From the IMG/VR virus record IMGVR_UViG_3300028602_000006: a stretch of 64,000 nucleotides of DNA. One strand, written 5' to 3'. The notes under the pieces are model-generated. The model ran no database searches. It saw only the letters and a program-made list of their open reading frames with translations, and was not told where the DNA came from. The stretch comes from a virus (lineage: Duplodnaviria; Heunggongvirae; Uroviricota; Caudoviricetes). Both the position numbers and the translations under genes were made by a program. Each line of letters begins with the position of its first letter. The stretch's first letter is position 1. This document shows positions 2,317 through 63,781 of the stretch, one piece after another.

Positions 2317-2424
2317 ATGATGGAAGTACAAAAATATATTAGGGAAAACGGTCTCGATAAACTTCGGGAAGAATTTTCGATAATTGTTACCGATTATCCT
2401 GACCGAATTGGAGCAATATTATGA
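2317..2424 (+). other. 35-aa leader ORF homologous to the N-terminus of the RNA-ligase-like gene at 7102, translationally coupled (ATGA) to the nuclease-helicase gene
   Basis: Hand translation gives MMEVQKYIRENGLDKLREEFSIIVTDYPDRIGAIL. This aligns with MTMHVQKYLREKGLKSLIDEFHIDVREYDDRIV of the 7102 ORF at roughly 60 percent identity. Its stop TGA at 2422-2424 overlaps the ATG at 2421. Confidence 0.5.
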
Positions 2425-4619
2425 ATACTATTAAACTTACGCATCCTTTTATAAATAAATGTCCTGACATTGATGAATTATTCTTCAATAAAGATGGCGA
2501 AGTTGTTTGTACGATTAACGCCTTTTGTGGTAAAATTAAAACTTTGTCAGCAAAGTACTCCGACAGGATGGATGAAAATAAATTCAAAGGTGATGCTTTA
2601 GAGTTGTTTACTGAATTTATGATCCGAACAGCGCCTGAAGACAATCGTATTGGTATTTACAACTACAAACCTATTACTGATGCAGAAGACGATGATGTCG
2701 GCGTTGATGGATTTGGGGCAGGCGAAGATGGAAATCCAGCTACAGTTCAGGTGAAGTACAGGGCCGGTAATTATGTCTTGACAGCAAATGCAGATCACCT
2801 TTCTAATTTTCTTACTGCGTCTTGGAATGACTTCGCAGTTCCTATCAATTCAAAAACAAATATGCTTATTGTCACAACAGGCCAAAAGGTAGATGAAAGA
2901 ACTCGTCAAAAGATGCTCAAAGACAAAGTGAGAGTACTTAACAGAGATTCTTTACGAAGAATGTACGATAATCGTCCTGAATGGTGGAAACGATTTTACG
3001 AATCAGTAAAAAATAACCGTTTTGCTCCTAGCCACAAACGTACCCCCATCGTTTTAAGACAGCATCAAAAAGAAGCAAAAGACGCAATCAAAAATGATAA
3101 AAACGGTAAGGGTAAAGTACTTCTTCCCACTGGAACAGGGAAAACCATAATTGAGGTCCATACAGCAATTGATTCAATCAAAGCGCTAAGGCGTAAAAAA
3201 GTAATCGCCCCCATCATTAAAGTTAATTCGAGTCGTATTCTTCTTTGCTTCCAATTAGCTGATGATTTTATTAAAGAATTCGCTATGGCAAAAATAAATG
3301 CTCGATATGTTAATTTCAATTCGGGCAAAAAAGATGAAACAGAATATGCTGAATTGATGCAACAAGAAGGGTGGGGGTATAGAAAAATTCTATCCACTAC
3401 AAATCCCCAAGAAGTTGCTAAGGTCTATGAGGATTGTAAAAAGAAAAATATGCCTTTGGTTATCTTCAGCACTTATCATTCCTCTGAAAGACTGGCTGAA
3501 AGTGGATTGGTTCCCAATATGACAATTAATGACGAAGCTCATAATCTAGTTTCTAGAAATTTTCATAGGGCCGCTAAATTACCTACTGATAGTAATATCT
3601 TCTTCACTGCGACTGAAAAGGTAACAGATTCCGATGACGGTTTGGGCATGAACAACGAGGACGTGTTTGATAATATAATTTACACAAAATCTGCAAAGGA
3701 ATTGATTGACGCAGGAGAAATGGTTCCTCCTTATCTTCATGTTGTTCGATCTTCTAACGAATGCCGCATTGATACGGATTACGAAATGATGTTTCAATCT
3801 ATCGTAGAAGCATTTAAACATCATGAAAATAAGATAAAAGAAGTGTCTTATGATGCTGAAAATATAGGCGCTAAAGTTCTTGTCGTTTGTAGAGGACAGC
3901 AGGATCTACTTCAGATGTTTAAGACAAAAGCGCTTGAACATTTTAAGACAAATTACCCTGATATCCATCTATTTGCCTTATCTTCTGAATTTGGGATGGT
4001 TAATGATGGAGAGTTCTTTGAACCTCCTGTAACAAATATCAAGAAATATCATATGTTGAAAAAACTTAAAGCTATGGGTCATAACGAGAGGGCTTTGATT
4101 TTTCATGTCGATATGATTGGGGAAGGGATTGATGTCCCCGGTGTTACAGGAATAATGCCATTTAGGAATTGTGAAGAGTCTAAATTAATTCAGAATATTG
4201 GCAGGTCAACTAGACTTCATCCTGAAGATCGTAAGCGTTTTTACAATGAAGAAATTAGCCCTAATGACCGAACAATAGGATGGATTAAACCTTATGCATG
4301 GGTTATCATCCCATCATATATGATCGATTCTGAAGGTATCGAGGCTCGTTTTAGATTTATTATAGATCGTGTCAGAAGAGAGTACGGCTACATCCCTCAA
4401 CAGCATACAGTTATAGATAATGTTGAGGGTTTAAGCGATGAAGACGAAATTGATACTGTCAATAAAATCACTAAGAAAAAGAAACAAGTAAAATCTCATA
4501 TAGAAGAATTCAAACATGAATATGAAAAAGTTTGTGTTATGGAGAAAATTATCATGGAAGATAAGTTGACTCAAAAAGAGAAGGATGTATGGGATGAACT
4601 TAAGGCTATGGGATTGTAA
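2421..4619 (+). CDS. PD-(D/E)xK-like nuclease domain fused to SF2 (DEAH) helicase; restriction-enzyme-like motor subunit
   Basis: N-terminal GVDGFG...VQVKY (D...QxK variant of PD-(D/E)xK). Helicase motifs I LLPTGTGKT, II NDEAHN, III FFTAT, and a QNIGRSTR arginine finger. Confidence 0.7.
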   Translation: MNTIKLTHPFINKCPDIDELFFNKDGEVVCTINAFCGKIKTLSAKYSDRMDENKFKGDALELFTEFMIRTAPEDNRIGIYNYKPITDAEDDDVGVDGFGAGEDGNPATVQVKYRAGNYVLTANADHLSNFLTASWNDFAVPINSKTNMLIVTTGQKVDERTRQKMLKDKVRVLNRDSLRRMYDNRPEWWKRFYESVKNNRFAPSHKRTPIVLRQHQKEAKDAIKNDKNGKGKVLLPTGTGKTIIEVHTAIDSIKALRRKKVIAPIIKVNSSRILLCFQLADDFIKEFAMAKINARYVNFNSGKKDETEYAELMQQEGWGYRKILSTTNPQEVAKVYEDCKKKNMPLVIFSTYHSSERLAESGLVPNMTINDEAHNLVSRNFHRAAKLPTDSNIFFTATEKVTDSDDGLGMNNEDVFDNIIYTKSAKELIDAGEMVPPYLHVVRSSNECRIDTDYEMMFQSIVEAFKHHENKIKEVSYDAENIGAKVLVVCRGQQDLLQMFKTKALEHFKTNYPDIHLFALSSEFGMVNDGEFFEPPVTNIKKYHMLKKLKAMGHNERALIFHVDMIGEGIDVPGVTGIMPFRNCEESKLIQNIGRSTRLHPEDRKRFYNEEISPNDRTIGWIKPYAWVIIPSYMIDSEGIEARFRFIIDRVRREYGYIPQQHTVIDNVEGLSDEDEIDTVNKITKKKKQVKSHIEEFKHEYEKVCVMEKIIMEDKLTQKEKDVWDELKAMGL

Positions 4620-4684
4620 ATATTATTGACATTGCTTGTCGGATATGTTAATCTTTTCATATCTTAAATGGTAAAGGATATTTA

Positions 4685-5881
4685 ATGAGTCAAGAAAAAA
4701 TATTGGATGCTCAAGCTGTTAGAAGTGTTTATGAGAAGTTTTCTATAGATTTGCCAAATATAGGCAATCTACAGAACGTTTTTACTCCTTATTCGCTTTG
4801 CAAGGATATGATTGGACGCCTGAAGAAGTATAAGAGGAAGTTTGAAGGAGCGAACTTCTCTGTTTTTAATCTTGAATTTGCTGAAGTTTTAATGTATGAT
4901 TATGGAGTTAAGGCAAATCAGATTTGGTTCTTTACTGATTGTGTTGAGAAGAGCAAATTCGCTCAGTTGAATAGGTATGCGGGGTTGAATGTCGAATTGG
5001 TTAATTTAAGCCGATTCTTACGGGAGAAGATTACTATGAAATTTGATGTTGTTATTATGAATCCGCCTTATCAGGCCCCTAAAGCCAAAGAGCACGAAGG
5101 GAGAGGAAAATGTGGAACATCGCTGTGGGAAGATTTTGTTAGGAAATCCTTTGAATTGGCGAAAGATGATGGATATGTTTGTGCTATTCACCCTAATAGG
5201 TGGAGAAGACCCGAGGGCAAAATTGGCGAATTAATTAAGTCAAAACAAATTCATTATCTTGAAATGCATGGACTGGAAGACGGAAGGAAAACATTTTCTT
5301 GCCAAACCGATTATGATTGGTATATTGCTCAAAACAAAAAATCAGAGACCAATACGCAAGTTGTAGACTATGATGGTGAATCAAATTCAATTGATTTGAA
5401 AAACGCTCCTTTCATTCCCAACTCCAATGTGAAAGATGTTTTGTCTCTCGTCGCAAAAGAAGGAGAAGAAAAAGTCAATTTGTTATGGAACTGTGAATAT
5501 CATACTCAAGCAAGAGCAAAAGACGGAACGATGTCACCAATACAAACCGATGAATTTAAATACCCTTGTGTTTATTCTGTAACAATCAAAGGAGAAGTTA
5601 AGTTTTGGTACTCAAGCAAAAAAGAACAATTTTTTGGAATTCCTAAGGTCATATGTTGCAATGGTCATACTATGCCAATTGTTGACAAAAATGGGGAGTA
5701 CGGATTAACTCAATTCGCATTTGGAATAGCTGATAAAAAAACAAATTTAGAAAAAATACAAAATGTTATGAATTCTGATGAATTCAGGAAAACAATAATG
5801 GGTTATAGAGATAATGGTGGCAATGTTTATGACAAGAACATGATAGCAACTTTCCGCAAAGATTTTTGGAACGAAATATGA
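4685..5881 (+). CDS. N6-adenine DNA methyltransferase (NPPY) with C-terminal putative target-recognition region
   Basis: VVIMNPPYQAP is a motif IV. Upstream NVFTPYSLCKDMI is a motif X-like element. No clear FxGxG motif I in this ORF. Confidence 0.6.
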   Translation: MSQEKILDAQAVRSVYEKFSIDLPNIGNLQNVFTPYSLCKDMIGRLKKYKRKFEGANFSVFNLEFAEVLMYDYGVKANQIWFFTDCVEKSKFAQLNRYAGLNVELVNLSRFLREKITMKFDVVIMNPPYQAPKAKEHEGRGKCGTSLWEDFVRKSFELAKDDGYVCAIHPNRWRRPEGKIGELIKSKQIHYLEMHGLEDGRKTFSCQTDYDWYIAQNKKSETNTQVVDYDGESNSIDLKNAPFIPNSNVKDVLSLVAKEGEEKVNLLWNCEYHTQARAKDGTMSPIQTDEFKYPCVYSVTIKGEVKFWYSSKKEQFFGIPKVICCNGHTMPIVDKNGEYGLTQFAFGIADKKTNLEKIQNVMNSDEFRKTIMGYRDNGGNVYDKNMIATFRKDFWNEI

Positions 5882-10618: not shown

Positions 10619-11100
10619 ATATGAGTATATATAGCGATATCAAAAAGAGAATTTTAGAGTGTATGAAGTCTGGCGAAGCAGAAGAGCGAGACATTTTAAG
10701 GACGCTTATAGGAGAAATCCAATCTAAGATGTCTCGTGAAGGGAAAAACGAAGCCGATGATACGATGGTTGAAAAAACACTCATTTCTTTTAAAGAAAAC
10801 GCTTATCAAAGCACACTTGAAGGGATATCTGAAAAAATTGGCGCTGAGTCCTGTACCGATGCTTGGCTGGAATCTGACAAAAGAGCAAAGATAGAAATAG
10901 CGATCTATGAAAAGTTCTTGCCCAGTTATGAATCTGTAGAAAATATTATAGTTCTATTAGAAGAGTTCAGGGATAGAATTTTATCGGCAAAATCAGATGG
11001 CCCCGCTGTAGGCATGGCGATGGGATTTTTGAAGAGTGCGGGTAAGAAAGTACAGGGCAAGGACGTATCTGAGGCCGTTGCTATTATCAGGAAGGTTTAA
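10619..11100 (+). CDS. GatB/YqeY-domain protein
   Basis: Start placed at the ATG with SD GAGGAG. IKKRILECMKSGEAEERDILRTLIGEIQ and YEKFLPSYESVENI...GPAVGMAMGFLKSAGKKVQGKDVS match the YqeY pattern. Confidence 0.5.
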
Positions 11101-15186: not shown

Positions 15187-17250
15187 ATGTCAATTGAACA
15201 AAAAATAAGTATATGTTTCGGGCAAATTGAGGTCGCTCCCGGTCTCCCTAGGGTCAACACTGAAAAAATGTTGAAGTATATCAAAGAAGCTAAAGCTGAA
15301 GCATCGGATCTATTGATATTCCCAGAATTATGCATTCCGGGATACCTTCTTGGAGATATGTGGGAACGTCCTGATTTTCTAGAAGATTGTGAAGAATGCG
15401 GTAAGAAAATAATTGAAGCTTCTCAAGGAATAACTATAGCCTTCGGGAATGTCAAAACAGATCCTAAAAATAAAAACGAAGACGGCAGAATCCGTAAATA
15501 TAATTGCTGTTTTATAGCATCAAACGGGCAATTGGTCACAACTGTCACAAAAACTTTACAGCCAAACTACAGGGAATTTGATGATAATCGCCACTTTTAT
15601 GACAAGCGTAAGCAATTGACTGATTCATATCTTTCAGAGCCAAGTACAAAGGTTTCATTTTCTGAATTCATTGATAAGGCCTATGAGCCATCCTTAACAA
15701 TAAATGGAATTAAGATTGGATTCTTACTCTGTGAAGACGCTTGGGATACAGATTATTCATTCTCTCCTATAGATGTACTCGCACCCAAATGCGATCTGAT
15801 AGTCAATATGAGTTGTTCTCCGTTTACCATGGGGAAGAACCAAAAAAGGAACAGGCTTTTCTCTCAAAGAGCTAAAAATAATAATGTTATGATTGCCTAT
15901 ATAAATAATGTGGGCATTCAAAATAACGGGAAAACAATTTATACTTTCGATGGGAATAGTTGTCTTTATGATATTAATGGTGCGCAGTTTGACCTTTCTG
16001 CTCCTTTTGAAGAAAGCCTTGAAGTTTTAAGCTTGGATTTAGATGCTCGTACAGGATCATATGAAGAGAGCGCCATTGGTTCGTCAAGCGATGATATTGA
16101 AGATTTGTATTCATCAATTTGTTATGGAATCGAAAAATTTCTTCAGCAGATAGGAGTTAATAAAGTAGTAATTGGTGTATCCGGCGGGATTGATTCGGCT
16201 GTTGTTGCGGCGTTGTTTTCTGAAATTCTTCCTCCGGAAAATATTTATCTTATTAACATGCCTAGCTCTTTTAATTCTCAAACCACAAAAGACTTGGCAA
16301 AAGACTTGGCTAAAAATCTGGGATGTAAATATAGTATAATTCCTATTGGATGTAGTATTGATCACACTAGAGAACAATTATTAAAAGAAGGATTTGATGT
16401 TAGTAAATTCGTTTTCGAGAACATTCAGGCAAGAGATCGTTCTTCCAGAATTCTTGCGGCCATTGCTTCTTCAGTAGGCGGGGTTTTCACTTGCAACGCC
16501 AATAAGTCTGAGGCAACCGTAGGGTATACGACTCTCTATGGGGATTTGTCCGGATTTTTGTGCCCATTAGCTGACGTATGGAAGACAGACGTGTACAAGC
16601 TTGCTGAGTATATAAATGATAGTAGTGATGAGATGATCATTCCCTATGGCATACTCGCAGTTAAGCCTTCGGCAGAATTAAACAACGATCAAAATGTCGA
16701 TGAGGGGAAGGGAGACCCTATTATTTACCCCTATCATGATTTGCTATTTAGAAGTTGGGTAGAAAAGTGGGAGAGGGCAACCCCCGCTGACATTCTACAA
16801 TGGGTCATAGATGATGATTTAGAAGGGAAATTAGGCTTTGAGGATGGGGATATAGTTGCCAAGTATTTTGGAGGAGATAAAAGAGCTTTTGTTGCCGACT
16901 TGGAAAGATGGTGGAATCTATATGACGGATTTGCTTATGCGAAAAGAATTCAGGCTCCTCCTGTTCTTGCGATCAGCCGCAGAAGTTACGGATTCGATCA
17001 CAGAGAAAGTTTAACCGCTCCATTTTATAGCCAAAAATATTACAAACTTCGTATGCAATATTTGGGAGAAGATTTGTCCATGAAAGAGGTTTATGACAAT
17101 TTAAAAACTATAAAAGAGAATGTCATTTTTGTTATGGCGAAAGAAGCTGGATTAGATATGGGAAAGTTTACAACCAAGGATTTAGCTCTTAAGGGATTCA
17201 TGTCCAAGATCTATGATTTATCCGATGAAGATATGGTTCATTGGGAGTGA
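15187..17250 (+). CDS. nadE: Glutamine-dependent NAD+ synthetase (nitrilase/CN-hydrolase domain + NAD synthase PP-loop domain)
   Basis: N-domain FPELCIPGY (Glu) and LLCEDAWD (Cys). C-domain PP-loop VIGVSGGIDSAVVAAL. 687 aa, typical of the fused form. Confidence 0.8.
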   Translation: MSIEQKISICFGQIEVAPGLPRVNTEKMLKYIKEAKAEASDLLIFPELCIPGYLLGDMWERPDFLEDCEECGKKIIEASQGITIAFGNVKTDPKNKNEDGRIRKYNCCFIASNGQLVTTVTKTLQPNYREFDDNRHFYDKRKQLTDSYLSEPSTKVSFSEFIDKAYEPSLTINGIKIGFLLCEDAWDTDYSFSPIDVLAPKCDLIVNMSCSPFTMGKNQKRNRLFSQRAKNNNVMIAYINNVGIQNNGKTIYTFDGNSCLYDINGAQFDLSAPFEESLEVLSLDLDARTGSYEESAIGSSSDDIEDLYSSICYGIEKFLQQIGVNKVVIGVSGGIDSAVVAALFSEILPPENIYLINMPSSFNSQTTKDLAKDLAKNLGCKYSIIPIGCSIDHTREQLLKEGFDVSKFVFENIQARDRSSRILAAIASSVGGVFTCNANKSEATVGYTTLYGDLSGFLCPLADVWKTDVYKLAEYINDSSDEMIIPYGILAVKPSAELNNDQNVDEGKGDPIIYPYHDLLFRSWVEKWERATPADILQWVIDDDLEGKLGFEDGDIVAKYFGGDKRAFVADLERWWNLYDGFAYAKRIQAPPVLAISRRSYGFDHRESLTAPFYSQKYYKLRMQYLGEDLSMKEVYDNLKTIKENVIFVMAKEAGLDMGKFTTKDLALKGFMSKIYDLSDEDMVHWE

Positions 17251-18857: not shown

Positions 18858-20192
18858 ATGGCATCGTTAGTTGAGAAAGTACATCTGATAAAGTCTGACC
18901 CAGTAAACAATAACAATAAGTTTTGGATTGGAGAATTATATGATGATGATTCCGTGGTTTGTAGATGGGGAAGAGTCGGAGATACTGGGCAAAGTAAATC
19001 ATTCCCCAGCGGAGGAAAGAAATTTTTAGATTCAAAAGTCCGCTCTAAAAAGAAATCAGGACGTAATGGTGAAATCGCATATCGAGAAATAGAAATTATA
19101 GACGGAGCAAGCGTTCCTGCACCCAAAACATCCTCTACAAAAACTACCAGCGGTAGCCAACTATCTCAAATCGCCAAAAAGCAAATTCAAACTGGTGGTA
19201 ATCCTGAGGCACTTAAACTCATTGATTACCTTGTTAAAGTTAACGCTCATCAAATCGCAAGTATGACGGGTGGCCAAATTACTTATAACTATGATACAGG
19301 TCTTTTCCAAACTCCGATGGGTCTTGTTTCTCAGGCTAATATTGATGAAGCGAGAGATAAAATTACAGGTATTGGTGATATTGTAGCAAAGAAAAAGTAC
19401 AATGATCCTAATCTTATGGAACTTACTAGGGATTATCTTATGCTTGTCCCTCAGGATATTGGGCGTAAAAGGCTTGAACTTGATGATTTTTGGTGCGATC
19501 TAACTGCCGTTCAGAAACAGGATGCTATTCTTGACGGGCTTCAAGCTTCTTTAACGCAAGCAGCTAAAACCCCCGTAAAGTCCGTCAAAGATAATAAGCC
19601 CGAAGAGCAAATATTTCAAACTAAGCTCGAACTCGTTTCCGATCCTAAGGCGATTAAGAAAATAAAGGACTTATACCATAAAACTCGTCAGTCTATGCAT
19701 AATTGTTATCACCTTGATGTCAAAAAAGTATATACAATTGATATTAATACGGTTCAAGATGCGTTCAAAAGAGACGGCGCTAAGATGGATAATGTTTGGG
19801 ATCTTTGGCATGGGACTAGAGCGAGTAATCTACTCTCCATTCTTAAGGGCGGATTGATTATTCCGCCGTCAAATGCATCAAATGTTACTGGGCGTATGTT
19901 CGGAAATGGGGTTTACGCTTCTGATCAGTCCACAAAGGCTCTTAACTATGCTTATGGATATTGGGGCGGGGGCAAATCAGATGACAACTGCTTTATGTTC
20001 CTTCTTAAAATGGCCATGGGTAATTATTACACTCCTAAAAGTCCGTTTTCAGCTAACTCTGCTCCCAAAGGCTATGATTCCACCTTTGCACAGGCTCATA
20101 AGAGCGGGGTATATAATAACGAAATGATTGTATATAGGACATCCCAAATAAATCTTAGGTATTTGGTGGAATTTAGTCCGAATGGTAAATAA
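18858..20192 (+). CDS. Poly(ADP-ribose) polymerase-like protein (WGR domain + PARP catalytic domain)
   Basis: N-terminal WGR (FWIGELYDD...CRWGRVGDTGQ). Catalytic H-Y-E triad context HGTRASN...GIYFA-like GNGVYASDQ...YNNEMIVY. Confidence 0.75.
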   Translation: MASLVEKVHLIKSDPVNNNNKFWIGELYDDDSVVCRWGRVGDTGQSKSFPSGGKKFLDSKVRSKKKSGRNGEIAYREIEIIDGASVPAPKTSSTKTTSGSQLSQIAKKQIQTGGNPEALKLIDYLVKVNAHQIASMTGGQITYNYDTGLFQTPMGLVSQANIDEARDKITGIGDIVAKKKYNDPNLMELTRDYLMLVPQDIGRKRLELDDFWCDLTAVQKQDAILDGLQASLTQAAKTPVKSVKDNKPEEQIFQTKLELVSDPKAIKKIKDLYHKTRQSMHNCYHLDVKKVYTIDINTVQDAFKRDGAKMDNVWDLWHGTRASNLLSILKGGLIIPPSNASNVTGRMFGNGVYASDQSTKALNYAYGYWGGGKSDDNCFMFLLKMAMGNYYTPKSPFSANSAPKGYDSTFAQAHKSGVYNNEMIVYRTSQINLRYLVEFSPNGK

Positions 20193-47501: not shown

Positions 47502-48731
47502 CTACCCAGACACTAAAGATGTCTGGGTTTCGTGACTCGCAGGCTCGTCTAACGACAACGCCTCCTCACGTTTTTGTTTTGATTCCGACTGTATTCCACA
47601 ACCAGAATTGTAAATCATTAATCCTTGACTGAGGGCTTCGCCTGCAAGTCTCAGCCCTTGCTCCAATATATTTTTTGAAGCATTGATGTCTCTATCTAGT
47701 TTAGCACCACAAACAGGACAAACCCATTTTCTATCTTTCAATGTCAAATCCTGATTAACAAACTTACACTTGTTACAGGTTTTGCTTGAAGGGAAGAACT
47801 TATCTATTTGAATTAGGTTTCGTTCATTCCATTCCGATTTATACTTCAGTTGTCTTAGGAATTCGCTCCAAGAACAATCTGAAATACTTTTTGCTAGGTT
47901 ATGGTTTTTCATCATATTTGCAACAGATAAGTCCTCAACACAGATCGTTTGATTCTCACGAACTATTTGAGTTGTTATGTTATGGATATGATTTAGCCTA
48001 CTGTTTGTGATTTTCTCATGAACTCTAGCAACTTTGATTCGTTGTCTATTCCTACTACTTGATCCTTTTTGTTTTTTACTGAGTTGTTTCTGCTCATAAG
48101 AAAGTTTTTTAGCATACTTATTAGTAGTTTTTATGTTCTCATAGATTTTGCCATCAGAACATATTGCTAAATCTTTAATTCCTAAATCAACTCCTACTTG
48201 ATTTTTGTTCTTTTTATATGGAGCGTGTTCGGTTTCACAGGTAATAGAAACAAAATACTTACCTGATGGATTTTTGGAAATGGTTGAAAAGAGTATTGTT
48301 CCTTCAAGTGGTCTATCCTCTTTTACCTTGATGGGTTGTTTGAATTTAGGTATCTCTAGTTTCCCATTCTCATACTTAGTTGATTGAGGAATACGAAATG
48401 ATTGTTTGTCTTTCTTGGATTTGAATCGTGGGAACTTACCTTGTTTTGAAAAGAATCGGTTGTAAGCTACTTCTAAGTCTCTTAATGAAGCTTGAACTGA
48501 CTGAGAGTTAGTTTCTTTAAGCCAACTATATTCGTCTTGTTTCTTTAGCTTAGTGAGAGAGGATGCATTGTCATAATAGTTTAAAGAAGTGTTGTTTTCA
48601 AGATAGGCGTTTTTTCGTTCATTAAGAAAATGGTTCCATACAAATCTTTTAGCCCCGAAGTGTTTAGCCAATAGGACTTCTTGATCCTTAGTTGGGTATA
48701 TTCGATATTTAAATGACTTCTTTATTTTCAT
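47502..48731 (-). CDS. tnpB: TnpB (IS200/IS605-family OrfB, RuvC-like plus zinc finger)
   Basis: C-terminal CNKCKFVNQD...WVCPVCGAKLDRDINASKNI. The 3' end overlaps the perfect hairpin CCCAGACA-CTAAAGA-TGTCTGGG (47505-47527). No adjacent tnpA. Confidence 0.75.
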   Translation of the reverse strand: MKIKKSFKYRIYPTKDQEVLLAKHFGAKRFVWNHFLNERKNAYLENNTSLNYYDNASSLTKLKKQDEYSWLKETNSQSVQASLRDLEVAYNRFFSKQGKFPRFKSKKDKQSFRIPQSTKYENGKLEIPKFKQPIKVKEDRPLEGTILFSTISKNPSGKYFVSITCETEHAPYKKNKNQVGVDLGIKDLAICSDGKIYENIKTTNKYAKKLSYEQKQLSKKQKGSSSRNRQRIKVARVHEKITNSRLNHIHNITTQIVRENQTICVEDLSVANMMKNHNLAKSISDCSWSEFLRQLKYKSEWNERNLIQIDKFFPSSKTCNKCKFVNQDLTLKDRKWVCPVCGAKLDRDINASKNILEQGLRLAGEALSQGLMIYNSGCGIQSESKQKREEALSLDEPASHETQTSLVSG

Positions 48732-55798: not shown

Positions 55799-56212
55799 AT
55801 GGAGCTAAAAAATCCGAATAGAATATTTCATGAAGAAAAAAAATATGTGTACTCTTGCCAGTATCATGTAATCTTTTGCCCAAAGTACCGAAGAAGTGTA
55901 CTAATAAATGGAATAGAGAAAAGGTTGAAGGAACTTATCCATGAGAAGCAAAAGGAATATAACTATGAAGTAATAGACATAGAAGTAATGCCAAACCATG
56001 TGCATCTTCTATTAGATATAAATCCTAAAATGGGGATATGGTCTATTATTAGCAAAATTAAAGGATATACATCTAACACACTTCGTAAAGAATTTCCTGT
56101 TCTAAGATCTAGATTACCTACACTATGGTCTGGTTCAAAATTTATCGGTACAGTCGGATCTATATCACTAGATGTTATCAAAAAATATATTGAGGAACAA
56201 AAGAACAAATGA
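55799..56212 (+). CDS. tnpA: IS200-type Y1 HuH transposase TnpA
   Basis: CQYHVIFCPKYRRSVL, HuH MPNHVHLLL, catalytic Tyr region KGYTSNTL. 137 aa. Confidence 0.85.
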   Translation: MELKNPNRIFHEEKKYVYSCQYHVIFCPKYRRSVLINGIEKRLKELIHEKQKEYNYEVIDIEVMPNHVHLLLDINPKMGIWSIISKIKGYTSNTLRKEFPVLRSRLPTLWSGSKFIGTVGSISLDVIKKYIEEQKNK

Positions 56213-57282
56213 TCCTAACTTATAGAATTAAGCACGATAGAGACTTTAGTTCAGAGCTTAGTAAGGCATTGAAAATCGCTAAGTTCGCTATTCGTACTAA
56301 ATCTCGTTCAAGTAAAGATGTAAGTTTTTTTGGTCTTAAATCAATAATATCTAACCAAATACTTAAAAAATATGCAGGCCAAAAGAACTGTAAATTAATT
56401 CACTCAGTGAAACTAACAATCCCAAATCAGGGTATTAATGTAGATCAAGAAGAGCGCATCGTCAATATTCCATGTATAAAGCTGAAACTACAATACCACT
56501 TCCCAAATAACTTCAATAAAGTCAATCAAATAGAAATAGATAATAAGTATTGTTATATATCATGCCAATTCCCCGATAAACCTGAAATCGAAATAGAAAA
56601 CTACATTGGTTTAGATAGAAATACCACTGGGCATATAGCGGTGGGAGCTATTGTCTCTACAGGTAAGGTTTATAAGTTGGGAAAGAAAGCTTATCATACT
56701 CACCGTAAGTACAAAAAAATTCGAGCACATCTACAAGAGAAAGGCGCTAAGAAAAAACTAAAAAGAATAAGAAAACGAGAGAAAAATATTATCAAAGATA
56801 TTAATCATAAAACTTCTAGAAAGATCGTTGAAATAGCTAAAGATAATAAATGCGGAATAGCTTTAGAGGATTTAAAAGGAATAAGAAAAGGCAAAAGAAG
56901 TAATAAGATAAACAAAACAGGAGAAAGTTTCAAGTCTTCCATAAATAGTTGGGAATTCTATCAATTACAGACTATGATAGAATACAAAGCCAAAATATGT
57001 GGGATACCTTTAGTATATGTTGATCCCAAATACACATCTCAAAAATGTAGTAAATGCGGACTCATTGCTAAGAATAATAGGAAACAAAAAAAGTATACAT
57101 GCACCGAATGCGGTCATGTTGATCATGCGGATGCTAATGCTGCTTTTAATATTTCAGCATTGGCATTTCAAAGAAAATCAATGAGCAATGATCAATCCAT
57201 AGCAGACAGGGATGTTATGGAAGGGAGCACTGATACCCCGCAGTTGGAAACACAACACGAGCTTATAGCGAGTGTTGCTTAA
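56209..57282 (+). CDS. tnpB: TnpB (OrfB) RNA-guided nuclease-family protein
   Basis: Overlaps tnpA by 4 nt. C-terminal CSKCGLIAKNN...YTCTECGHVDHADANAAFNI zinc finger and RuvC-III. Confidence 0.8.
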   Translation: MILTYRIKHDRDFSSELSKALKIAKFAIRTKSRSSKDVSFFGLKSIISNQILKKYAGQKNCKLIHSVKLTIPNQGINVDQEERIVNIPCIKLKLQYHFPNNFNKVNQIEIDNKYCYISCQFPDKPEIEIENYIGLDRNTTGHIAVGAIVSTGKVYKLGKKAYHTHRKYKKIRAHLQEKGAKKKLKRIRKREKNIIKDINHKTSRKIVEIAKDNKCGIALEDLKGIRKGKRSNKINKTGESFKSSINSWEFYQLQTMIEYKAKICGIPLVYVDPKYTSQKCSKCGLIAKNNRKQKKYTCTECGHVDHADANAAFNISALAFQRKSMSNDQSIADRDVMEGSTDTPQLETQHELIASVA

Positions 57283-57568
57283 CCAAGAGCATCCTGTACT
57301 TTAAGGTATGGGTAGTATGTCAGTATGCACTGAATGGCGTGATTATAACCGCCTAAGCCATTTACACTCAAAAAAATCACAGTAAAAATTACTTTTGCAA
57401 TTCGCCTTCAATCACTCTTTTTACTATATATAGTGTTGCGAAAATAGAGTGGGACAAAAAGACGCTAATTTTGTTCACGGAATATTCTTTATGATTCCTT
57501 TGGCGGGGGACAAGTGGGAGGAAGTGGGGTAAAGTGGGGGATAAGTCATATTGAAAACCTACAAAAAA

Positions 57569-57656
57569 TAGATCCACGTAGATCCACAGCATGTTTTTAT
57601 GAGAAAAAACATGTAGAAATTGAAGCATGTTTTTATGAGAAAAAACATGTAGAAAT
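57569..57656. repeat. Tandem direct repeats: TAGATCCAC x2, then 32-nt unit GCATGTTTTTATGAGAAAAAACATGTAGAAAT x2 (4-nt gap), each unit internally palindromic
   Basis: Units at 57589-57620 and 57625-57656 are identical. Each contains the inverted repeat CATGTTTTT-ATGAG-AAAAACATG. Confidence 0.7.
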
Positions 57657-57799
57657 GAGAGAGTTGATTGAGAGAGTTGATATGGATTAGTATCTGGCGT
57701 GAGATTTAGGAAGTAAAAAACGAAAAAAACTCTTGAAAAGGCAATAATAATTTGTAGAATACAGAGCGATTAACGTCCTAAATGGAATAGGAGAATAAT

Positions 57800-58474
57800 A
57801 TGAAAACAGAGATAACTTCTGAAGAGATGGTAAAGGCGACAAGGAAAAAGGTATTTTGGAGGCTATATGGTTTGCCATGGATAATTTGCGTATTTATCTT
57901 GGCGAGTACATGTATAGGATGTTTATTTTATGTACGGGATCTACAAATAAGATTCGACAGGAAAGATAGTTTTAGGGAAAAAGTATTATTGGCCAGTAAA
58001 AAAGGCGGAGAAGTACTTAGGACTGAGCTAGAATCAGAATTAATTAATAGGGGGATAATTTTAGGGGTTGAACGTATTCGGAGGGAAATAGTTGATCGTG
58101 GGTATGGATATTGGGATGTAAATGATAATACATTAGATATTGAATTCAAATGGTATGATATAAAGCAGACATCTATATCTGAAAGTACCAATATAATCTA
58201 TTCACGGAATGTGCGGGATGTGGGGAAGAGAGAACGGGAAGAAAGGGAATATCCTTTTACATGGGATAATTATAAATTTAGTCAAGAGATAGGTTTAGAT
58301 TTTGAGAATCAGTTAATTGGGACTGTACGGTTAACAATTGATCATTTATTTAAGACGAGAGGAATAAAGGATGCACGGAATGATATAGAATTTAGCATTC
58401 ACGTAAAGAATGAGGTAGAGGAATCTATTCGCAAGAGATTTGATGGATTTGAAACTTATAATAGAACTAACTAA
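57800..58474 (+). CDS. Membrane-anchored hypothetical protein
   Basis: N-terminal TM (LPWIICVFILASTCIGCLFYV). SD GGAGAATAATATG. Confidence 0.4.
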   Translation: MKTEITSEEMVKATRKKVFWRLYGLPWIICVFILASTCIGCLFYVRDLQIRFDRKDSFREKVLLASKKGGEVLRTELESELINRGIILGVERIRREIVDRGYGYWDVNDNTLDIEFKWYDIKQTSISESTNIIYSRNVRDVGKREREEREYPFTWDNYKFSQEIGLDFENQLIGTVRLTIDHLFKTRGIKDARNDIEFSIHVKNEVEESIRKRFDGFETYNRTN

Positions 58475-58485
58475 AAGGATATCAA

Positions 58486-59085
58486 ATGGTTAAGAAAATA
58501 ATGAAGAAAAGAGGAAGACCGCCAAAGAAAGCTACAGCGCCAAAGAAAGTGTCCAAGAAGAAGTCATCTAGAGCGAAAAAATCTTTCACGGAATGTGTGC
58601 AGGCAGGTAAGAAAGCGCCAAAGAAAGCGGTAGCGCCAAAGAAAGCGGGGAAGAGGGCAAAGAGCAATAAAGATATATTATCTGATAAGCCAAAACTTTC
58701 AAAGCGTCCAAAATGTCCTAGGGGTAATCCGAATTTTATTAAGAAAAGGAAACCCACGGAATGTAATTTAGAGCCATCGCCAACGCTTAAGGTATTTAAG
58801 ATATTGGGATATTGCTCTGGCACTGAATGTAATGGGATAGTAACTACTGGGGATTATGAGGATAAGAAGAAGGGGATAGTTTGTTGTGTTAGTTGTGGGA
58901 AACGTCAAAAAGTTACTAGATTGAGGAAAAACATTAAAAGGGCTGAAAAACCATCAAAAGATTTTTCACGGAATAATAGAAATGATTTAGATGATATTAC
59001 TATTCCTCATGATGGATTACTTAGAGATATTCCAGATATACCTGATGAATTTCGTAATATAAAAATAGGGGAGGAGTGGGATTAA
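58486..59085 (+). CDS. AT-hook / histone H1-like lysine-rich DNA-binding protein with C-terminal zinc-ribbon
   Basis: KRGRPPKK (AT-hook RGRP core). Repeats APKKVSKKK, APKKAVAPKKAGKRAK. C-terminal CxxC...CCVSCGKRQK. Confidence 0.55.
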   Translation: MVKKIMKKRGRPPKKATAPKKVSKKKSSRAKKSFTECVQAGKKAPKKAVAPKKAGKRAKSNKDILSDKPKLSKRPKCPRGNPNFIKKRKPTECNLEPSPTLKVFKILGYCSGTECNGIVTTGDYEDKKKGIVCCVSCGKRQKVTRLRKNIKRAEKPSKDFSRNNRNDLDDITIPHDGLLRDIPDIPDEFRNIKIGEEWD

Positions 59086-59825
59086 TTATGATATGGCAAT
59101 TAACTTATAAGATAAAAACGGTTGATAAAGCGACTTGTAATTGTAATGTTCTTATTGAGACGCATGAGAAAAATAATAGTCAACATGTAACGAATCTTTT
59201 TTGGCATGGGATTGGGGAATATGTTAGTAATATGCGCCTTAAATTGATAGAGATTATTGATATTGAATGTTTAGGGGTAGTAAGCATAAAAGATGTAGAG
59301 TAATAAGTATTTATCTTTAGGAGGTAATTTTGGGGAAAGGAGCATTATTTTTTAAAGTTACGGGATCTAATCCATCTGATTATGCGGTATACAAGATAAT
59401 TAATTCTATTAGCGGGCGGCGTATTTATATATCTGAGGGGGAGACATGGGATAGGGGGAATAGATGGAACAGGCCCGGCAGGAATAATCGATGGCCATTA
59501 ACTTGGTATTATCCTGATCCTCGGAGTCAAAAAATAGAATATTTAAATGATTTTGATATATTGGATTAAATAATATATTGGAATAGAATATTTTTATGGA
59601 TTAAACGTCTTATTTCATTTTAGAATATAATTAATATCTTTGATGGGGGAGTTCTGACTATTATTTCGAATTAATTAAATTTATATTAAATATTTAGCCT
59701 CATTTACTTTAAAAGGGTATTTAACCGTTGACCTCAAACCTACAAAATCCTACAAACAACTAAAAAATACTTTTATTTAAATAGAGGATTTTTCTGTATA
59801 ATATAGAATAAAAGGAGTATGAAAA

Positions 59826-60065
59826 ATGAAATCATCAAAATTTGCAAGGATAATGAAAGATATGGAAAATAAAAATCATAAGGTCGTTAGAGTCTCTAAA
59901 ACAGAATTTGAACTAGATACGGGAGACATTTACCCAATCCCGTTTGATTTGGGATATGAACCAACGCTAGAAGAATTCCAAAAATTTATAAATGATTCCA
60001 AGTCGCTTATATCTGAATTCATTAAAAAGTCAGAAAAGGAGAAGCGAAATGCTAGAAAAAGATAA
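59826..60065 (+). CDS. Hypothetical protein
   Basis: SD AAAGGAGTATGAAAAATG. Confidence 0.4.
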   Translation: MKSSKFARIMKDMENKNHKVVRVSKTEFELDTGDIYPIPFDLGYEPTLEEFQKFINDSKSLISEFIKKSEKEKRNARKR

Positions 60066-60735
60066 ACTCCTTAGTATGGCAGAAACTTGTTCTCTTCTCA
60101 ATGTATCCCAAGAAACCTTAAGGAATTGGGATGCTGATGGAACTCTAAAGCCAGTTAGAACAAAAGGTGGTCATCGTAGGTATAAGCAGAGCGATATTAA
60201 TTCTTACATGGGAATTAAAGAAGAAGAAATCAATAGGAATCTTCTTCCTGTTGCGACTTATGCTAGAGTGAGTAGTCATGAACAGAAACAAAAAGGCGAT
60301 TTAGATAGACAAAGCCAAAGATTGTCTGAATACTGTGCCAAAAAGAAGTATAGAGTTGAACACATTATTAAGGATGTCGGTTCAGGTCTATCGGACACAA
60401 GAAGTGGATTTAATAAATTATTTGACCTTGTAATCCAGAAAAAAGTATCTAAAGTAATTGTAGAGCATAAAGATAGATTGACTCGTTTCCAATTTAATGT
60501 ATTAGTAAGATTTTTTGAGAGTTATGGTGTTGACATAGAGAAGGTTGAGTCTACGTCTTCTAATGATGAAGAGGAATTAGTTCAAGATATTATGATGCTT
60601 ATGGCTGTTTTCTCAGGGCGACTTTACGGCAAAAGGTCAGCAAAACGAAGAAAAGAGAAAAAATTGCAGAAAGAGCTTGACTTACTCAATGGTTCTGGTA
60701 TGATGACGCCAACAGTTGAGAAAGGAATAGAATGA
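60049..60735 (+). CDS. IS607-type serine recombinase (MerR-like HTH + resolvase catalytic domain)
   Basis: N-terminal HTH LSMAETCSLLNVSQETLRNWDADG. Catalytic YARVSSHEQ, DVGSGLSD, RLTR. Start set at the ATG with SD AAAAGGAGAAGCGAAATG. Confidence 0.7.
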   Translation: MLEKDKLLSMAETCSLLNVSQETLRNWDADGTLKPVRTKGGHRRYKQSDINSYMGIKEEEINRNLLPVATYARVSSHEQKQKGDLDRQSQRLSEYCAKKKYRVEHIIKDVGSGLSDTRSGFNKLFDLVIQKKVSKVIVEHKDRLTRFQFNVLVRFFESYGVDIEKVESTSSNDEEELVQDIMMLMAVFSGRLYGKRSAKRRKEKKLQKELDLLNGSGMMTPTVEKGIE

Positions 60736-61424
60736 AAAACGATAACCAATTAGACAATGATATGTTGGCAACTTCGATAACCCATCCAAGAAATATTGCG
60801 GTTAAATGTTGGGATGTGCTTTTAGAGAAGTGTAGTTCATTGTCTTGTTTTGCGTCCAGAATAGAAAAACAGGCTGGAATTATAGAAAAATCAGAAAAAG
60901 TTGATTTCTTTGATAAATATGGCGAGGATGGAGCCAATTCTTTCAAAGGTGATGTAACAGAGGTTTTTGCAGAATATGTCCTTAAAGGATATGGAAGAAC
61001 ATGGGGAATTTATAACTATGTTCCATTCTTTTCTGTTTGTGGGGAAGATCAAGATGTGGGAGTGGACGGAACAGGCAAGACAAAAGACGGAAGAGTTATT
61101 ACGGTTCAGGTTAAATATGGCAACTGGTCAACTGCCCTTGATCATATTAAAAGAAAATTAAGAACCTTCCATTGGACTTCAATTTCGAAATATGGAGTTG
61201 GAACCACAAGTAGAGATCAAATGTTTGTCTTTACCTTGGCTCACGATATAAATTGGATGACTTTAGGTGGACATTTTCATGGGAGATTGAAATTCATAGC
61301 CCAAGAAGAGTCTGGCGGAATTTATCTTCCAAATAACGATCCAACAGAAGTTTGTTCTTTGAAGTCTGTCTGTGGCAATAATCCTACGTTTTGGAAAACA
61401 TTTTGCGAAATGGTGAAATCATGA
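60732..61424 (+). CDS. PD-(D/E)xK-like nuclease domain protein (paralog of the N-terminus of 2421-4619)
   Basis: QDVGVDGTGKTKDGRVITVQVKY parallels DDVGVDGFGAGEDGNPATVQVKY. ATGA overlap with the recombinase gene. Confidence 0.6.
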   Translation: MKNDNQLDNDMLATSITHPRNIAVKCWDVLLEKCSSLSCFASRIEKQAGIIEKSEKVDFFDKYGEDGANSFKGDVTEVFAEYVLKGYGRTWGIYNYVPFFSVCGEDQDVGVDGTGKTKDGRVITVQVKYGNWSTALDHIKRKLRTFHWTSISKYGVGTTSRDQMFVFTLAHDINWMTLGGHFHGRLKFIAQEESGGIYLPNNDPTEVCSLKSVCGNNPTFWKTFCEMVKS

Positions 61425-63781
61425 AAACAAATCATATATTCAAATTCAAAATTCTTAATGGAAGCGTCTCTAATGCTGGTAATTTGATGCCTTCTGATTT
61501 GTCCTTTGACGGATTTGGACAAAATCTTAGGAAACTTTCACTAGAAAGTAAAACTGCTAAAGACTTTATTGAGAGTGGCTTTCAGTCTTTTGTGGAAGCA
61601 TTGATACTTTATTTTGGAGATAAAATCGGTATCAGTGATTACGAAAATATTAATTCGATTAATCATAAATATAAGGCTCATGGTCTTGGCAAGAGAAATG
61701 GCAAGGTTGTAACTGCTTTCTTCGCCTTTAATGGCAAAGAGTTCATGACAGATGGCAACAGTCAACTTACTGAATATTTTTCTCAATCATGCTATCTTGA
61801 CGGATTTGATTTGTCTGCCGATGAAAAGGTATTCAATATATTTTCTGATTCTGTTGCGATTCATGAAAACACTATAAAGAACTTTGTTTTGCCAGAGAAA
61901 ACAAAATTTTATGGAATTAATGAAATCAAGTCTTTGGTTGATGGCAATATCGGTTTCTGGAAGGCATATAGGGAATCTTTGGAAAATGCCGTCAATGAAG
62001 TTTTATCATGTTCAATGGATTTTGTTCCAGACGCATACCAAGTGGAAGCAATAGATAGGCTATTGGCTATTCGTACAACAGAGTTTATTTCTGGTCAAAA
62101 GATGGAAAGCGAAATAATAAATGAAGTTTGTTTAGATAAGCCTCGATTCAAAATCTCCAACAATAAGATAATTACATTCTATAGACATGAAAAATTAATC
62201 ATTGAAATAGATATGTCTCATAAGAGAGCACAGGTAATATGGCCCACTGGAACGGGAAAAAATGAAATTATGATGGAATTTTCAATACGATTGGCTAAAC
62301 TGCTTAGATCGCAAGGGATGTCAGTTAAAATATTATTCATATCTCCTCGTATTAATTTAGGAGTGCAAGGAATTAGAAAAATTGTCAATAGGCTCAAGCA
62401 GTATGATGCTGATAATGAAGTTGAAATAGTTAATTTTTCGTCAGGAGGCTACGATAATGATAGCCTCGCAAAACTTGATTGCAATATTGATGGAGTAACC
62501 AGCACAACGTCGGTGAATGTTCTCAAAGACATTATCAATAGGTCAAATGGTTGTACTTTTGTTTTCTCCACATATAATTCAGTTGATAAGATTATTGATG
62601 CTGGTATTAAATTTGATCTTATAAATTGTGACGAAGCTCATAATATTGTTAAGGGGAAAAGCATTCCGCAAAAAAGTAGAGAGGCTGTTATTTCTGAACA
62701 GGCTAGACGCCTTTCTCCTTTTACTGTATTTTATACTGCCACACAAGCTCTAACTGGGACTCCAGATGCCCCTATAGAAGATGGGAAAGGAATGGATAAC
62801 CCATCATTATTCGGAGAAGTTATTTCCCGAAAGACTCCCAAGGAAATGATAGAATGTGGAAAAATTGTCCGTCCTCTTTTGTGCCATTTGTCGATTACAA
62901 AAGCTATTTTAAGAAAGCACGTTGACATCTCTTCTGCAACGCAGGAAGAAATAACTAAAAATGCGGAACTTAATGCTTATATAATATGGGAATCTTATTT
63001 AGAAATTGAGAGAATCAACCAAAGACATTCCTTAAATAGTGACCAAAATTGCATCAAAATGTTGGTTAAGTGTCCGGGAGGTAAATCATATTCTGAAATA
63101 ATAAAATCAAAAACATTTCAGCAATATAGCAAGAAATTTCCTAGTGTTGGAATATATGGAATTTCTAGCGATTGGGGTAATTGGATAGACGGAATAAGAT
63201 ATGAATCAAATTCTAAATCAGAAAATCTATTCTTAGACACGTTAAGGGACAAAAAATCAGATGAAAAAGCAATCATTCTTCACATAGCGAAAGTAGGTGA
63301 AGGATGGGATGTACCGGGAATTAATGCTATTCTTCCCTTTGGCGACATGAGCGATATTACTTCAAGTCAGGCTTTGGGTAGGGGAATGAGACTTCATCCT
63401 TTTGATAGAGAAAGATTGTCTAAGAGCTTGATAGTCCCTTCGGATTGCTATAAAGGGAAGTTCTATAAGCCATTCTGTTATGTTATTATGCCAAAATATT
63501 GTGGATTTAGCGATATTAACAGAAACAATATTGAGAGAATGGTGGATCAGATTCAGTCCGATATTGGGTATTGTCCTTATGAGATATTCAATGAGGAGAC
63601 CTATGATGGCAAGATGATTACTGTTCCACCGCCTAGAATTGAAAAGACCTATACTGTTCCTGAAGAGATTGAGCATGAATTTAGTATTATTCTTTCAATT
63701 GAGGAAAGAAAAAAGCAAGAAGAGTTTAGGAAACAAGTGGATAGCGAGAAAGAGGCGTTGCGAAAGGAATTTGCGTTATGA
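61391..63781 (+). CDS. SF2 DEAH-type helicase (paralog of the C-terminal part of 2421-4619), Walker A variant GKN
   Basis: WPTGTGKN, NCDEAHN, FYTATQ and GEGWDVPG...QALGRGMR. Overlaps the nuclease-domain ORF by 34 nt in another frame. Confidence 0.65.
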   Translation: MENILRNGEIMKTNHIFKFKILNGSVSNAGNLMPSDLSFDGFGQNLRKLSLESKTAKDFIESGFQSFVEALILYFGDKIGISDYENINSINHKYKAHGLGKRNGKVVTAFFAFNGKEFMTDGNSQLTEYFSQSCYLDGFDLSADEKVFNIFSDSVAIHENTIKNFVLPEKTKFYGINEIKSLVDGNIGFWKAYRESLENAVNEVLSCSMDFVPDAYQVEAIDRLLAIRTTEFISGQKMESEIINEVCLDKPRFKISNNKIITFYRHEKLIIEIDMSHKRAQVIWPTGTGKNEIMMEFSIRLAKLLRSQGMSVKILFISPRINLGVQGIRKIVNRLKQYDADNEVEIVNFSSGGYDNDSLAKLDCNIDGVTSTTSVNVLKDIINRSNGCTFVFSTYNSVDKIIDAGIKFDLINCDEAHNIVKGKSIPQKSREAVISEQARRLSPFTVFYTATQALTGTPDAPIEDGKGMDNPSLFGEVISRKTPKEMIECGKIVRPLLCHLSITKAILRKHVDISSATQEEITKNAELNAYIIWESYLEIERINQRHSLNSDQNCIKMLVKCPGGKSYSEIIKSKTFQQYSKKFPSVGIYGISSDWGNWIDGIRYESNSKSENLFLDTLRDKKSDEKAIILHIAKVGEGWDVPGINAILPFGDMSDITSSQALGRGMRLHPFDRERLSKSLIVPSDCYKGKFYKPFCYVIMPKYCGFSDINRNNIERMVDQIQSDIGYCPYEIFNEETYDGKMITVPPPRIEKTYTVPEEIEHEFSIILSIEERKKQEEFRKQVDSEKEALRKEFAL

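Follow-up and report, generated by a model that had tools for sequence, protein, structure and literature searches.

The AT-hook and zinc-ribbon gene

The window analyzed here covers the initial 64 kb of a contig of 182,571 bp from a metagenome (ERZ27250894 k141_2398814). We describe a gene at positions 58486-59085 of its plus strand, the family to which the encoded protein belongs, and an oriented DNA word of 9-10 nucleotides (nt), CAC(G/T)GAATG(T), that is found in this gene and its flanks. An AAGGA ribosome-binding sequence lies 8 nt 5' of the gene, and the stop codon of the preceding gene is 11 nt before its start. The product of 199 amino acids (aa) is identical to NCBI WC119_00470, which bears the label 'MAG Synergistaceae bacterium'. 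The gene and the parts of its protein are as follows.

58486-59085, plus strand: gene of the AT-hook, zinc-ribbon and acidic-tail protein, 199 aa, ATG start
58486-58665, plus strand: Lys/Ala/Pro-rich basic region, aa 1-60, net charge +24, three xPKK repeats, predicted to be disordered
58507-58530, plus strand: AT-hook KRGRPPKK, aa 8-15 (RGRP core aa 9-12), recognized as a sequence motif
58717-58731, plus strand: degenerate second hook PRGNP, aa 78-82, aligned with the RGRP of most homologues; R79 and G80 are nearly invariant
58777-58935, plus strand: predicted four-cysteine zinc ribbon, aa 98-150, from alignments and AlphaFold; the sole confidently folded part
58978-59082, plus strand: acidic C-terminal tail, aa 165-199, net charge -7, ending in IPDEF...GEEWD, a motif kept in most homologues

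The initial annotation had reported an open reading frame (ORF) with an AT-hook, and this holds exactly. The RGRP core has K/R on both sides (KK-RGRP-PKK, aa 7-15) and is unique in the window when ORFs of 60 aa or longer are read in all six frames, while at least one such hook (up to five) is present in 33 of 44 family proteins. The N-terminal half is strongly basic, with 36 K+R against 5 D+E in aa 1-100 (net +31). Three (A/S)PKK repeats are indeed present (aa 18, 44, and 50), but the resemblance to histone H1 or chlamydial Hc1 that had been drawn from them is limited to composition (Lys, Ala, Pro). The repeats are due to a local internal duplication of 39 nt in the basic region (58520-58558 and 58616-58654, 82% identical) and are absent from the aligned homologues. 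Likewise, neither PF00538 nor PF07432 was among the Pfam matches at E <= 0.1, and the N-terminus is predicted to be disordered. The C-terminal cysteine pairs noted earlier do belong to a ribbon with invariant cysteines, although only one of them is a CxxC. The protein has cysteines at positions 110, 115, 133, 134, and 137, and the two knuckles are C110-x4-C115 and C134-x2-C137, giving an overall spacing of C-x4-C-x18-C-x2-C.

A family without named members

An exhaustive HMMER search retrieved 29 homologues of 94-222 aa (30-44% identity, E-values down to 8e-14), and a profile search retrieved 21 homologues and added more to the HMMER set. Approximately 45 homologues, metagenomic and without names, share the ribbon with the 199-aa protein. 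Two family alignments were used, A1 with 30 sequences and A2 with 21. Residues G108, C110, C115, C134, and C137 were invariant in both, whereas D123 was invariant in one alignment and very nearly invariant in the second. A SKKEFL-like segment and a C-terminal peptide of the form IPDEF...(D/E)(D/E)W(D/E) were also conserved, with most members ending in IPDEF...DDWD. One homologue, P0038 (L004 1129-1971), carries two ribbon modules, an extra N-terminal one (VGYCSDCNG...CKTCKTR) and the canonical one, which shows that the zinc ribbon is a mobile unit within the family.

Annotation resources gave no name to the protein. Scans of the 199-aa protein against Pfam, PHROGs, NCBIfam, and PADLOC returned nothing above noise, and a word-indexed sequence search found only the protein itself. 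No match was obtained in sequence searches of the PDB with either the protein or the family profile, no family member was found in the GTDB representative genomes, and scans of IMG/VR with the family and with a conserved downstream gene retrieved no relatives. The very short profile PF02178 did not match the window protein at E <= 0.1; the only Pfam domain in the family is a precomputed PF02178 match, flagged 'faint', in homologue P0040.

AlphaFold run on the single sequence gave a predicted local distance difference test (pLDDT) score of 43. With the family alignment, block means of 90-96 were reached for aa 101-150, the remainder being disordered. Four cysteines invariant across 30 sequences and four short strands at pLDDT >90 place this segment in the zinc-ribbon class, with a predicted metal site. 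Foldseek searches with the alignment-based model revealed no specific relative (best E 0.66 in PDB and 0.34 in BFVD). The weak matches (E >0.3) were generic zinc-ribbon and zinc-finger folds together with unrelated proteins, and included Sec23, RNA polymerase Rpa12/Rpb9, ribosomal proteins, the TNB domain of Cas12f, and the zinc-binding domain of T7 primase.

Judged from its sequences, this is an undescribed family that combines a basic disordered AT-hook N-terminus, a four-cysteine zinc ribbon, and an acidic Trp-containing C-terminal peptide, and the 199-aa protein is very probably nucleic-acid-binding. The acidic tail is probably a protein-contact peptide. Tests of membership in HMGA, H1/Hc1, Ogr/Delta, TerS, and lambda O all failed, and we consider this a new, unnamed family of putative AT-hook DNA-binding proteins of new make-up. 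AT-hook proteins are barely documented in phages, and our literature search found no paper mentioning both 'AT-hook' and 'jumbo phage'.

An oriented DNA word in and around the gene

Homologues of the protein are rich in STEC and NTEC tetrapeptides, and the corresponding 8-mer in the DNA of the window is CACGGAAT. This 8-mer occurs seven times in 64 kb against 1.3 copies expected, a number reached by none of 100 shuffles, and six of the seven copies are on the plus strand within 57476-58974. When G-to-T variants are included, eight plus-strand copies lie in 57328-58974 and there are none elsewhere on the plus strand of the window. The word is also without copies from 59 to 69 kb of the contig, so that the count covers 69 kb of the 182,571 bp. 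Spacing between copies in the window is approximately 170-210 nt. In the following list, the upstream gene is the one that directly precedes the family gene.

57328-57336, plus strand: word variant CACTGAATG, intergenic
57476-57483, plus strand: word copy CACGGAAT, intergenic, 194 nt past the tnpB stop codon
58203-58212, plus strand: word copy CACGGAATGT, in the upstream gene, read as SRNV
58374-58382, plus strand: word copy CACGGAATG, in the upstream gene, read as ARND
58587-58596, plus strand: word copy CACGGAATGT, in the family gene, read as F-TEC (offset 2)
58755-58764, plus strand: word copy CACGGAATGT, in the family gene, read as P-TEC (offset 2)
58821-58830, plus strand: word variant CACTGAATGT, encoding the G-TEC of the first zinc knuckle
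58967-58974, plus strand: word copy CACGGAAT, in the family gene, read as SRN (offset 1)

Several of these positions recur in relatives. That of the copy at 58755 is kept in homologues and is read in another frame in L002 and L007 (loci of relatives are designated by L numbers), and the position of the variant at 58821 holds CACGGAATG read as C-HGM in L002, L007, and L034. L002 and L010 each have a copy in the frame of that at 58967 and at much the same place, after the ribbon and ahead of the SKKEFL segment; in L009 such a copy lies slightly further downstream.

The word is selected at the nucleotide level

Homologue DNA was fetched via the contigs of the homologues, and word statistics were computed over 12 non-redundant loci. 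Although the proteins are only about 30% identical, CAC(G/T)GAATG(T) is kept in these loci and is co-inherited with the family gene in nine of the 12. Copies are overwhelmingly on one strand (77 plus and 1 minus, p = 5e-22), and all 37 intragenic copies are on the sense strand. Word density falls from 5.1 copies per kb in the family gene to 1.24 in the flanking 1 kb and to 0.13 at distances above 1 kb, an approximately 40-fold difference between the gene and distant sequence.

We then compared these genes with resampled versions in which synonymous codons were drawn from each locus's own codon usage (2000 resamplings, seven loci). The resampled genes held on average 0.04-0.57 copies each against 3-7 observed, and in each of the seven loci none of the 2000 resamplings reached the observed number. 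Codon choice at the TEC tripeptides revealed the same pattern. The base preceding ACG-GAA-TGT was C at 23 of 23 TEC tripeptides, against a background of 3-16% for C at third positions, and the Thr codon was ACG in 15 of them and ACT in 7. The residue ahead of T varies (S, N, R, G, F, P, I, V), yet its codon always ends in C.

Mapping of the copies onto the protein alignment identified three that are conserved in position while their frame differs between loci. Specifically, the copy before the ribbon is read as xTEC in some loci and as ALN in others, that in the first zinc knuckle as G/S-TEC in some and as C-HGM in others, and that after the ribbon as S/A-RN. Moreover, the L002 protein is devoid of TEC, yet its gene still contains three strict copies and a CACAGAAT variant. 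Because of such copies without TEC and of the frame shifts, the STEC-type peptide repeats are to be seen as the shadow of a nucleic-acid signal. The word is held by selection at the nucleotide level, independently of the reading frame.

Outside coding sequence, the word forms tandem arrays with periods of 11-14 nt among relatives, located directly beside the family gene. A six-copy array (L004 2039-2131) comes after a pure A/T tract of 32 nt. In L007 (1313-1540), 10 copies of the CACGTAAT variant follow one another with a 13-nt period, and L039 has two arrays of three to four GTTCACGGAAT units with an 11-nt period (560-590 and 1352-1393), the second one 47 nt upstream of the family gene. Single copies are also found in the spacers of sigma-70-like promoters, namely TTGACA-16-TATGAT and TTGACA-16-TACAGT in L038 and TTGACT-17-TAGATT in L037, the last spotted by eye. 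Other single copies in L037-L039 are 14-46 nt upstream of start codons. A conserved extended -10 element, TGTATAAT, belongs to the gene that follows the family gene in five loci.

Some observations on the word stand apart from the family gene. In L038 (approximately 160-210) and L002 (approximately 10640-10690), it comes within about 7 nt after a putative tRNA 3' end (GGTTCGATTCCAGCC...), with a start codon 13-30 nt further on. A scan of IMG/VR for motif pairs yielded 21 loci, by a rough estimate near the number expected by chance, none of which encodes a family member; their contexts are unrelated, such as iterons adjoining DnaA boxes (L012) or an array beside an integrase and an XRE gene (L021). 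Among bacterial genomes, a triple-tandem scan yielded 43 arrays, mostly from high-GC Acidobacteriota (L040-L082), which are probably unrelated minisatellites. Arrays of CACGGAATG with a 10-14-nt period occur at many places in a few high-GC genomes of Acidobacteriota, Planctomycetota, and Actinomycetota (for example OZ252293.1, JAHECP01, and CAWEUE01). These arrays often grade into CACGGAA-N arrays at gene ends and show no obvious connection with the phage family. Literature searches brought up nothing pertinent, and for the motif string they gave primer sequences only.

Neighbouring genes and synteny

The features that flank the family gene in the window are listed here.

55799-57282: IS200/IS605 pair tnpA-tnpB, upstream of the family gene
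57733-57760, plus strand: candidate sigma-70-like promoter TTGAAA-16-TAGAAT, 10 of 12 consensus matches, identified by match to the consensus only; it precedes the two-gene unit
57800-58474, plus strand: upstream partner gene, 224 aa, with one N-terminal hydrophobic membrane-type segment
59992-60735: IS607-type serine recombinase (MerR-HTH and Resolvase domains) without an adjacent tnpB, downstream of the family gene

The product of the upstream partner gene is 26-36% identical to that of the gene directly upstream of the family gene in L002, L004, L009, and L010, and the family gene is always directly preceded by a gene whose product, of about 190-224 aa, starts with a membrane-type segment. 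The 224-aa protein could be assigned to no family in Pfam, PHROGs, or NCBIfam, and PADLOC profiles matched neither this protein nor the 199-aa one. In relatives, the family gene is usually followed by a gene for a protein of about 140-170 aa, which is not present in the window. Its place there is taken by three small orphan ORFs (59088-60065) and the IS607-type recombinase, possibly through insertion or replacement.

In the interval that separates tnpB from the promoter-like site of the two-gene unit, we also observed a G-rich run with GTGGG-type repeats (approximately 57500-57545). Just after it comes a region (57588-57681) that starts with a perfect 33-nt direct repeat of period 36 (57588-57620 and 57624-57656), each unit of which holds the palindrome CATGTTTTT..AAAAACATG, and continues with a perfect 13-nt tandem of two TGAGAGAGTTGAT units (57656-57681).

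A possible DNA-binding regulator and its own sites

In the reading that we tentatively favour, at a little under an even chance, the family protein would be a regulator or organiser that binds DNA site-specifically and acts on the oriented word cluster in and around its own gene. We infer here that the family protein binds the word, that its target is DNA rather than RNA, and that the outcome is regulatory. The family gene would then probably hold the binding sites of its own protein. According to this reading, the word CAC(G/T)GAATG(T) would be the cognate site, read by the zinc ribbon, while the AT-hooks would clamp the A/T-rich minor groove neighbouring it and the acidic tail would contact a partner. 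The same-strand cluster would be kept inside and beside the protein's own gene and, in relatives, also in tandem arrays and promoter spacers. The likeliest output would be regulation of a local block of early-type genes, through auto-repression or polar control of transcription through the gene itself and its neighbours. The initial annotation had offered a minor-groove AT-binding regulator as one possibility. This comes close in assuming a regulator that uses an AT-hook; however, the word is conserved and oriented, and sequence-specific binding is therefore favoured over generic AT-rich binding.

Among described systems, the phage regulators P2 Ogr, P4 Delta, and P1 C1 are comparable as small zinc-binding or monomer-site regulators acting at several promoters, and P1 C1 has asymmetric oriented operators, as is the case for the word. 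Nevertheless, no Pfam Ogr_Delta or PHROG match was found, the cysteine spacing of the window protein differs from the C-x2-C-x22-C-x4-C of Ogr/Delta, and its AT-hook and acidic modules and the intragenic site cluster are additional. The head-to-tail repeats with about 11-nt phasing in the L039 arrays also resemble the direct-repeat boxes of OmpR/PhoB (11-nt PHO box units). The binder of those boxes is a winged-helix response regulator, whereas here periods are 11-14 nt and no such regulator is encoded nearby.

Several points weigh against the regulator reading. The protein is linked to the word by co-location only, and the sense-strand location of all copies would be equally explained by a function at the RNA level. 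The zinc ribbon has no structural relative that points to DNA reading, given the Foldseek values reported above. The three most divergent members (L037-L039) have no intragenic copy, and further word clusters may exist beyond the 69 kb of the contig that were covered. Finally, arrays lie after the TGTATAAT promoter, before it, or are missing, as in L006 and L010, and have no fixed position, which indicates that they travel with the family gene rather than occupy a fixed promoter position. A simple operator model is therefore incomplete.

A more far-reaching version, which we regard as rather unlikely, is that of a self-referential phage module of a new kind. In this version the coding sequence would be a conserved oriented landing platform for the protein that it encodes, with sites fixed while the frame changes over them. 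With the conserved membrane-type partner gene, the module would organise the genome in cis, through polar transcription control, through tethering to the membrane, or by providing a new origin or packaging signal, and would differ in this from the described initiator, TerS, and ParB families.

Alternative explanations

The word cluster might instead be a unique cis site, such as replication origin iterons, pac, or a centromere, within the gene of its binder. In that case, initiator, small-terminase-like, or centromere-binding activity would be expected of the protein, and its acidic tail would recruit a helicase, TerL, or a motor. There are precedents for such an arrangement, as the lambda origin lies in gene O, pac in terS or pacA, and parS in or near parB. 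Only one cluster is present in 69 kb of genome, its copies are direct repeats in a single orientation, and the sites fall in the tolerant, disordered part of the gene that encodes their binder. In L004, the pure A/T tract beside the array is reminiscent of an unwinding element, and in the window a helicase gene is located 2.3 kb downstream. Lambda O and the small terminases bind DNA through their N-terminus and contact a partner through their C-terminus, a layout that the family, with its putative DNA-binding N-terminus and short conserved C-terminal peptide, resembles. The oriented repeats in the coding sequence of the binder, with a peptide partly dictated by DNA sites, also recall the lambda ori iterons and pac in P22 gene 3, SPP1 gene 1, and P1 pacA. 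However, the family shows neither Phage_rep_O nor terminase homology, and Pfam and PHROGs gave no match to TerS, Rep, or ParB families. Of the TerS features, we found only the sites inside the protein's own gene, and of those of lambda O the oriented in-gene repeats, with no Pfam match and no adjacent loader gene. No terminase, replication, or ParA-type gene adjoins the family gene in loci of at least 8 kb, and Pfam annotations contain no terminase within 5-10 kb of it in the window, L002, L004, L007, L037, and L038. In addition, GC skew does not switch at 58 kb, and the 9-10-nt sites are spread over 0.5-1.5 kb; known iteron or pac arrays are spaced much more tightly than the about 170-210 nt seen in the window. 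The copies that lie in promoter spacers or are scattered upstream of several genes in L037-L039 look regulatory. We therefore regard a cis site of this kind as unlikely. An action of the word in RNA ranks just behind it in our estimate. Sense copies in mRNA or untranslated regions (UTRs) would in that case be bound by the basic zinc-ribbon protein or another RNA-binding factor, with translational autoregulation, stability control, or sequestration as the outcome. RNA is a frequent ligand of zinc ribbons and of basic/RG tails, and its binding has also been reported for extended AT-hooks. Such an action would fit the transcribed sense strand as the location of 77 of 78 copies (the 37 intragenic ones without exception), the arrays at the presumed 3' or 5' UTR of the family gene, and the copies 14-46 nt upstream of starts (L037-L039) or directly after putative tRNA 3' ends. 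On the other hand, all genes of these regions are on one strand, so that the strand bias by itself cannot decide between DNA and RNA. The exact placement of copies between -35 and -10 hexamers suggests DNA recognition, and tandem arrays of 11-13 nt cannot put each copy in a hairpin. The predicted mRNA accessibility of word copies was lower than background (mean 0.050 against 0.111), and an Rfam scan of 55-61 kb found no family.

Less probable again is an architectural protein of the histone or HMGA kind, which would coat or condense the AT-rich DNA of phage or host without sequence specificity, in the nucleoid or the virion, the word then belonging to another system. HMGA and Myxococcus CarD combine AT-hooks with an acidic stretch. 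The HMGA-like C-terminal domain of Myxococcus xanthus CarD, like HMGA itself, shares with the family a disordered basic RGRP region, an acidic stretch, and an expected binding of minor-groove A/T tracts that is accessory to other DNA recognition. The extremely basic disordered N-terminus with AT-hook and PKK repeats and the 36% G+C of the genome would suit such a coat. Yet the family lacks sequence homology to HMGA or CarD, is of phage origin, and is tied to a specific non-AT word. HMGA is defined by three AT-hooks, an acidic tail, and no folded domain, whereas the window protein has a single intact hook (0-5 in relatives) and a confidently predicted ribbon between hooks and tail. By analogy, the family protein may be an HMGA/CarD-type AT-hook accessory fused to a zinc-ribbon reader. 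With the tails of linker histone H1 and with chlamydial Hc1 it shares the Lys/Ala/Pro-rich composition and the (A/S)PKK repeats, but it has no winged-helix GH1 or Hc1 domain, and Pfam also showed no HU-type domain. It is the ribbon that is conserved and not the PKK repeats, which are local duplications, and a coating function would leave both the folded conserved ribbon and the co-inheritance of the word (nine of 12 loci) unexplained. Nothing points to the virion or DNA-condensing role put forward in the initial annotation, and no structural or virion genes are nearby. Last, the word could have no function of its own and merely reflect a peptide module, 'AT-hook + STEC', that recently underwent tandem duplication or gene conversion, as the repeated KKRGRPKK-VSTEC units of many homologues and the 39-nt duplication in the window gene might suggest. 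We consider this very improbable, given that conservation is limited to a 9-10-nt core while the flanks differ, that the variable residue before T always has a C-ending codon, that copies are read in three different frames and also make up intergenic arrays, and that L002 combines a protein without TEC with three strict copies and CACAGAAT in its gene.

Other readings of the word were tried and rejected. CsrA-type sites, with their invariant GGA core that is usually presented in a hairpin loop, are not compatible with the variation at word positions 4-5 seen in the variants CACTGAATG and CACGTAATG, and the copies are not predicted to be exposed. A likeness to a parS half-site (TGTTTCACG) is present in array context only and was dropped. 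Evasion of Type III restriction by site orientation was discarded as the word is locally enriched and not depleted.

The locus is a case of overlapping codes, in which a DNA or RNA signal stays at homologous positions while the protein frame shifts over it, even within a zinc knuckle, and this explains the otherwise puzzling 'STEC' peptide repeats. A protein of about 200 aa and a word of 9-10 nt make a clean testable pair. If the cluster marks an origin, a pac site, or a regulatory hub, it would aid the annotation of a clade of large uncultivated phages that carry the family and whose relatives were not found in the IMG/VR scans or in the annotation libraries searched.

Genome context

Nearly all genes of the window are on one strand and its G+C content is 36%. 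Neither tRNA genes nor cellular core genes were found in the 64 kb, and PHROG matches are present. The gene content includes an RNA ligase, an NAD synthetase, a PARP-WGR protein, a RuvB-like ATPase, helicase-methylase modules, and several IS200/IS605 elements. Based on the one-strand gene arrangement, the G+C content, the lack of tRNA genes, and this gene content, we infer that the contig derives from a very large phage or a similar mobile genome. The 'MAG: Synergistaceae bacterium' label of the contig in NCBI is probably a binning artefact.

The number of IS200/IS605 elements is unusually high for a phage-like genome. At least three TnpB genes (Cas12f-like TNB) are found within 20 kb, at 55799-57282, at 47502-48731 on the minus strand, and at L001 17030-18118 (contig 65515-66603), and one of them is paired with an IS200-type Y1 transposase. 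A module formed by a phrog_7683 domain, a ResIII/DEAD helicase, and one or more DNA methyltransferases occurs twice, at 2421-5881 and at 60732-63781, the latter continuing to approximately 66.5 kb of the contig (L001). It is fused in one ORF at 2421-4619 and split into proteins of 230 and 796 aa at 60732-63781. PADLOC gave weak matches to restriction-like systems of Type IIG/III/I and to PbeA for these modules. Finally, the NAD synthetase gene and a gene for a protein with PARP catalytic, WGR, and PARP_reg domains are close together (15187-17250 and 18858-20192), and the vicinity of this eukaryote-like PARP to an NAD synthetase in a phage-like genome suggests manipulation of NAD or ADP-ribose.

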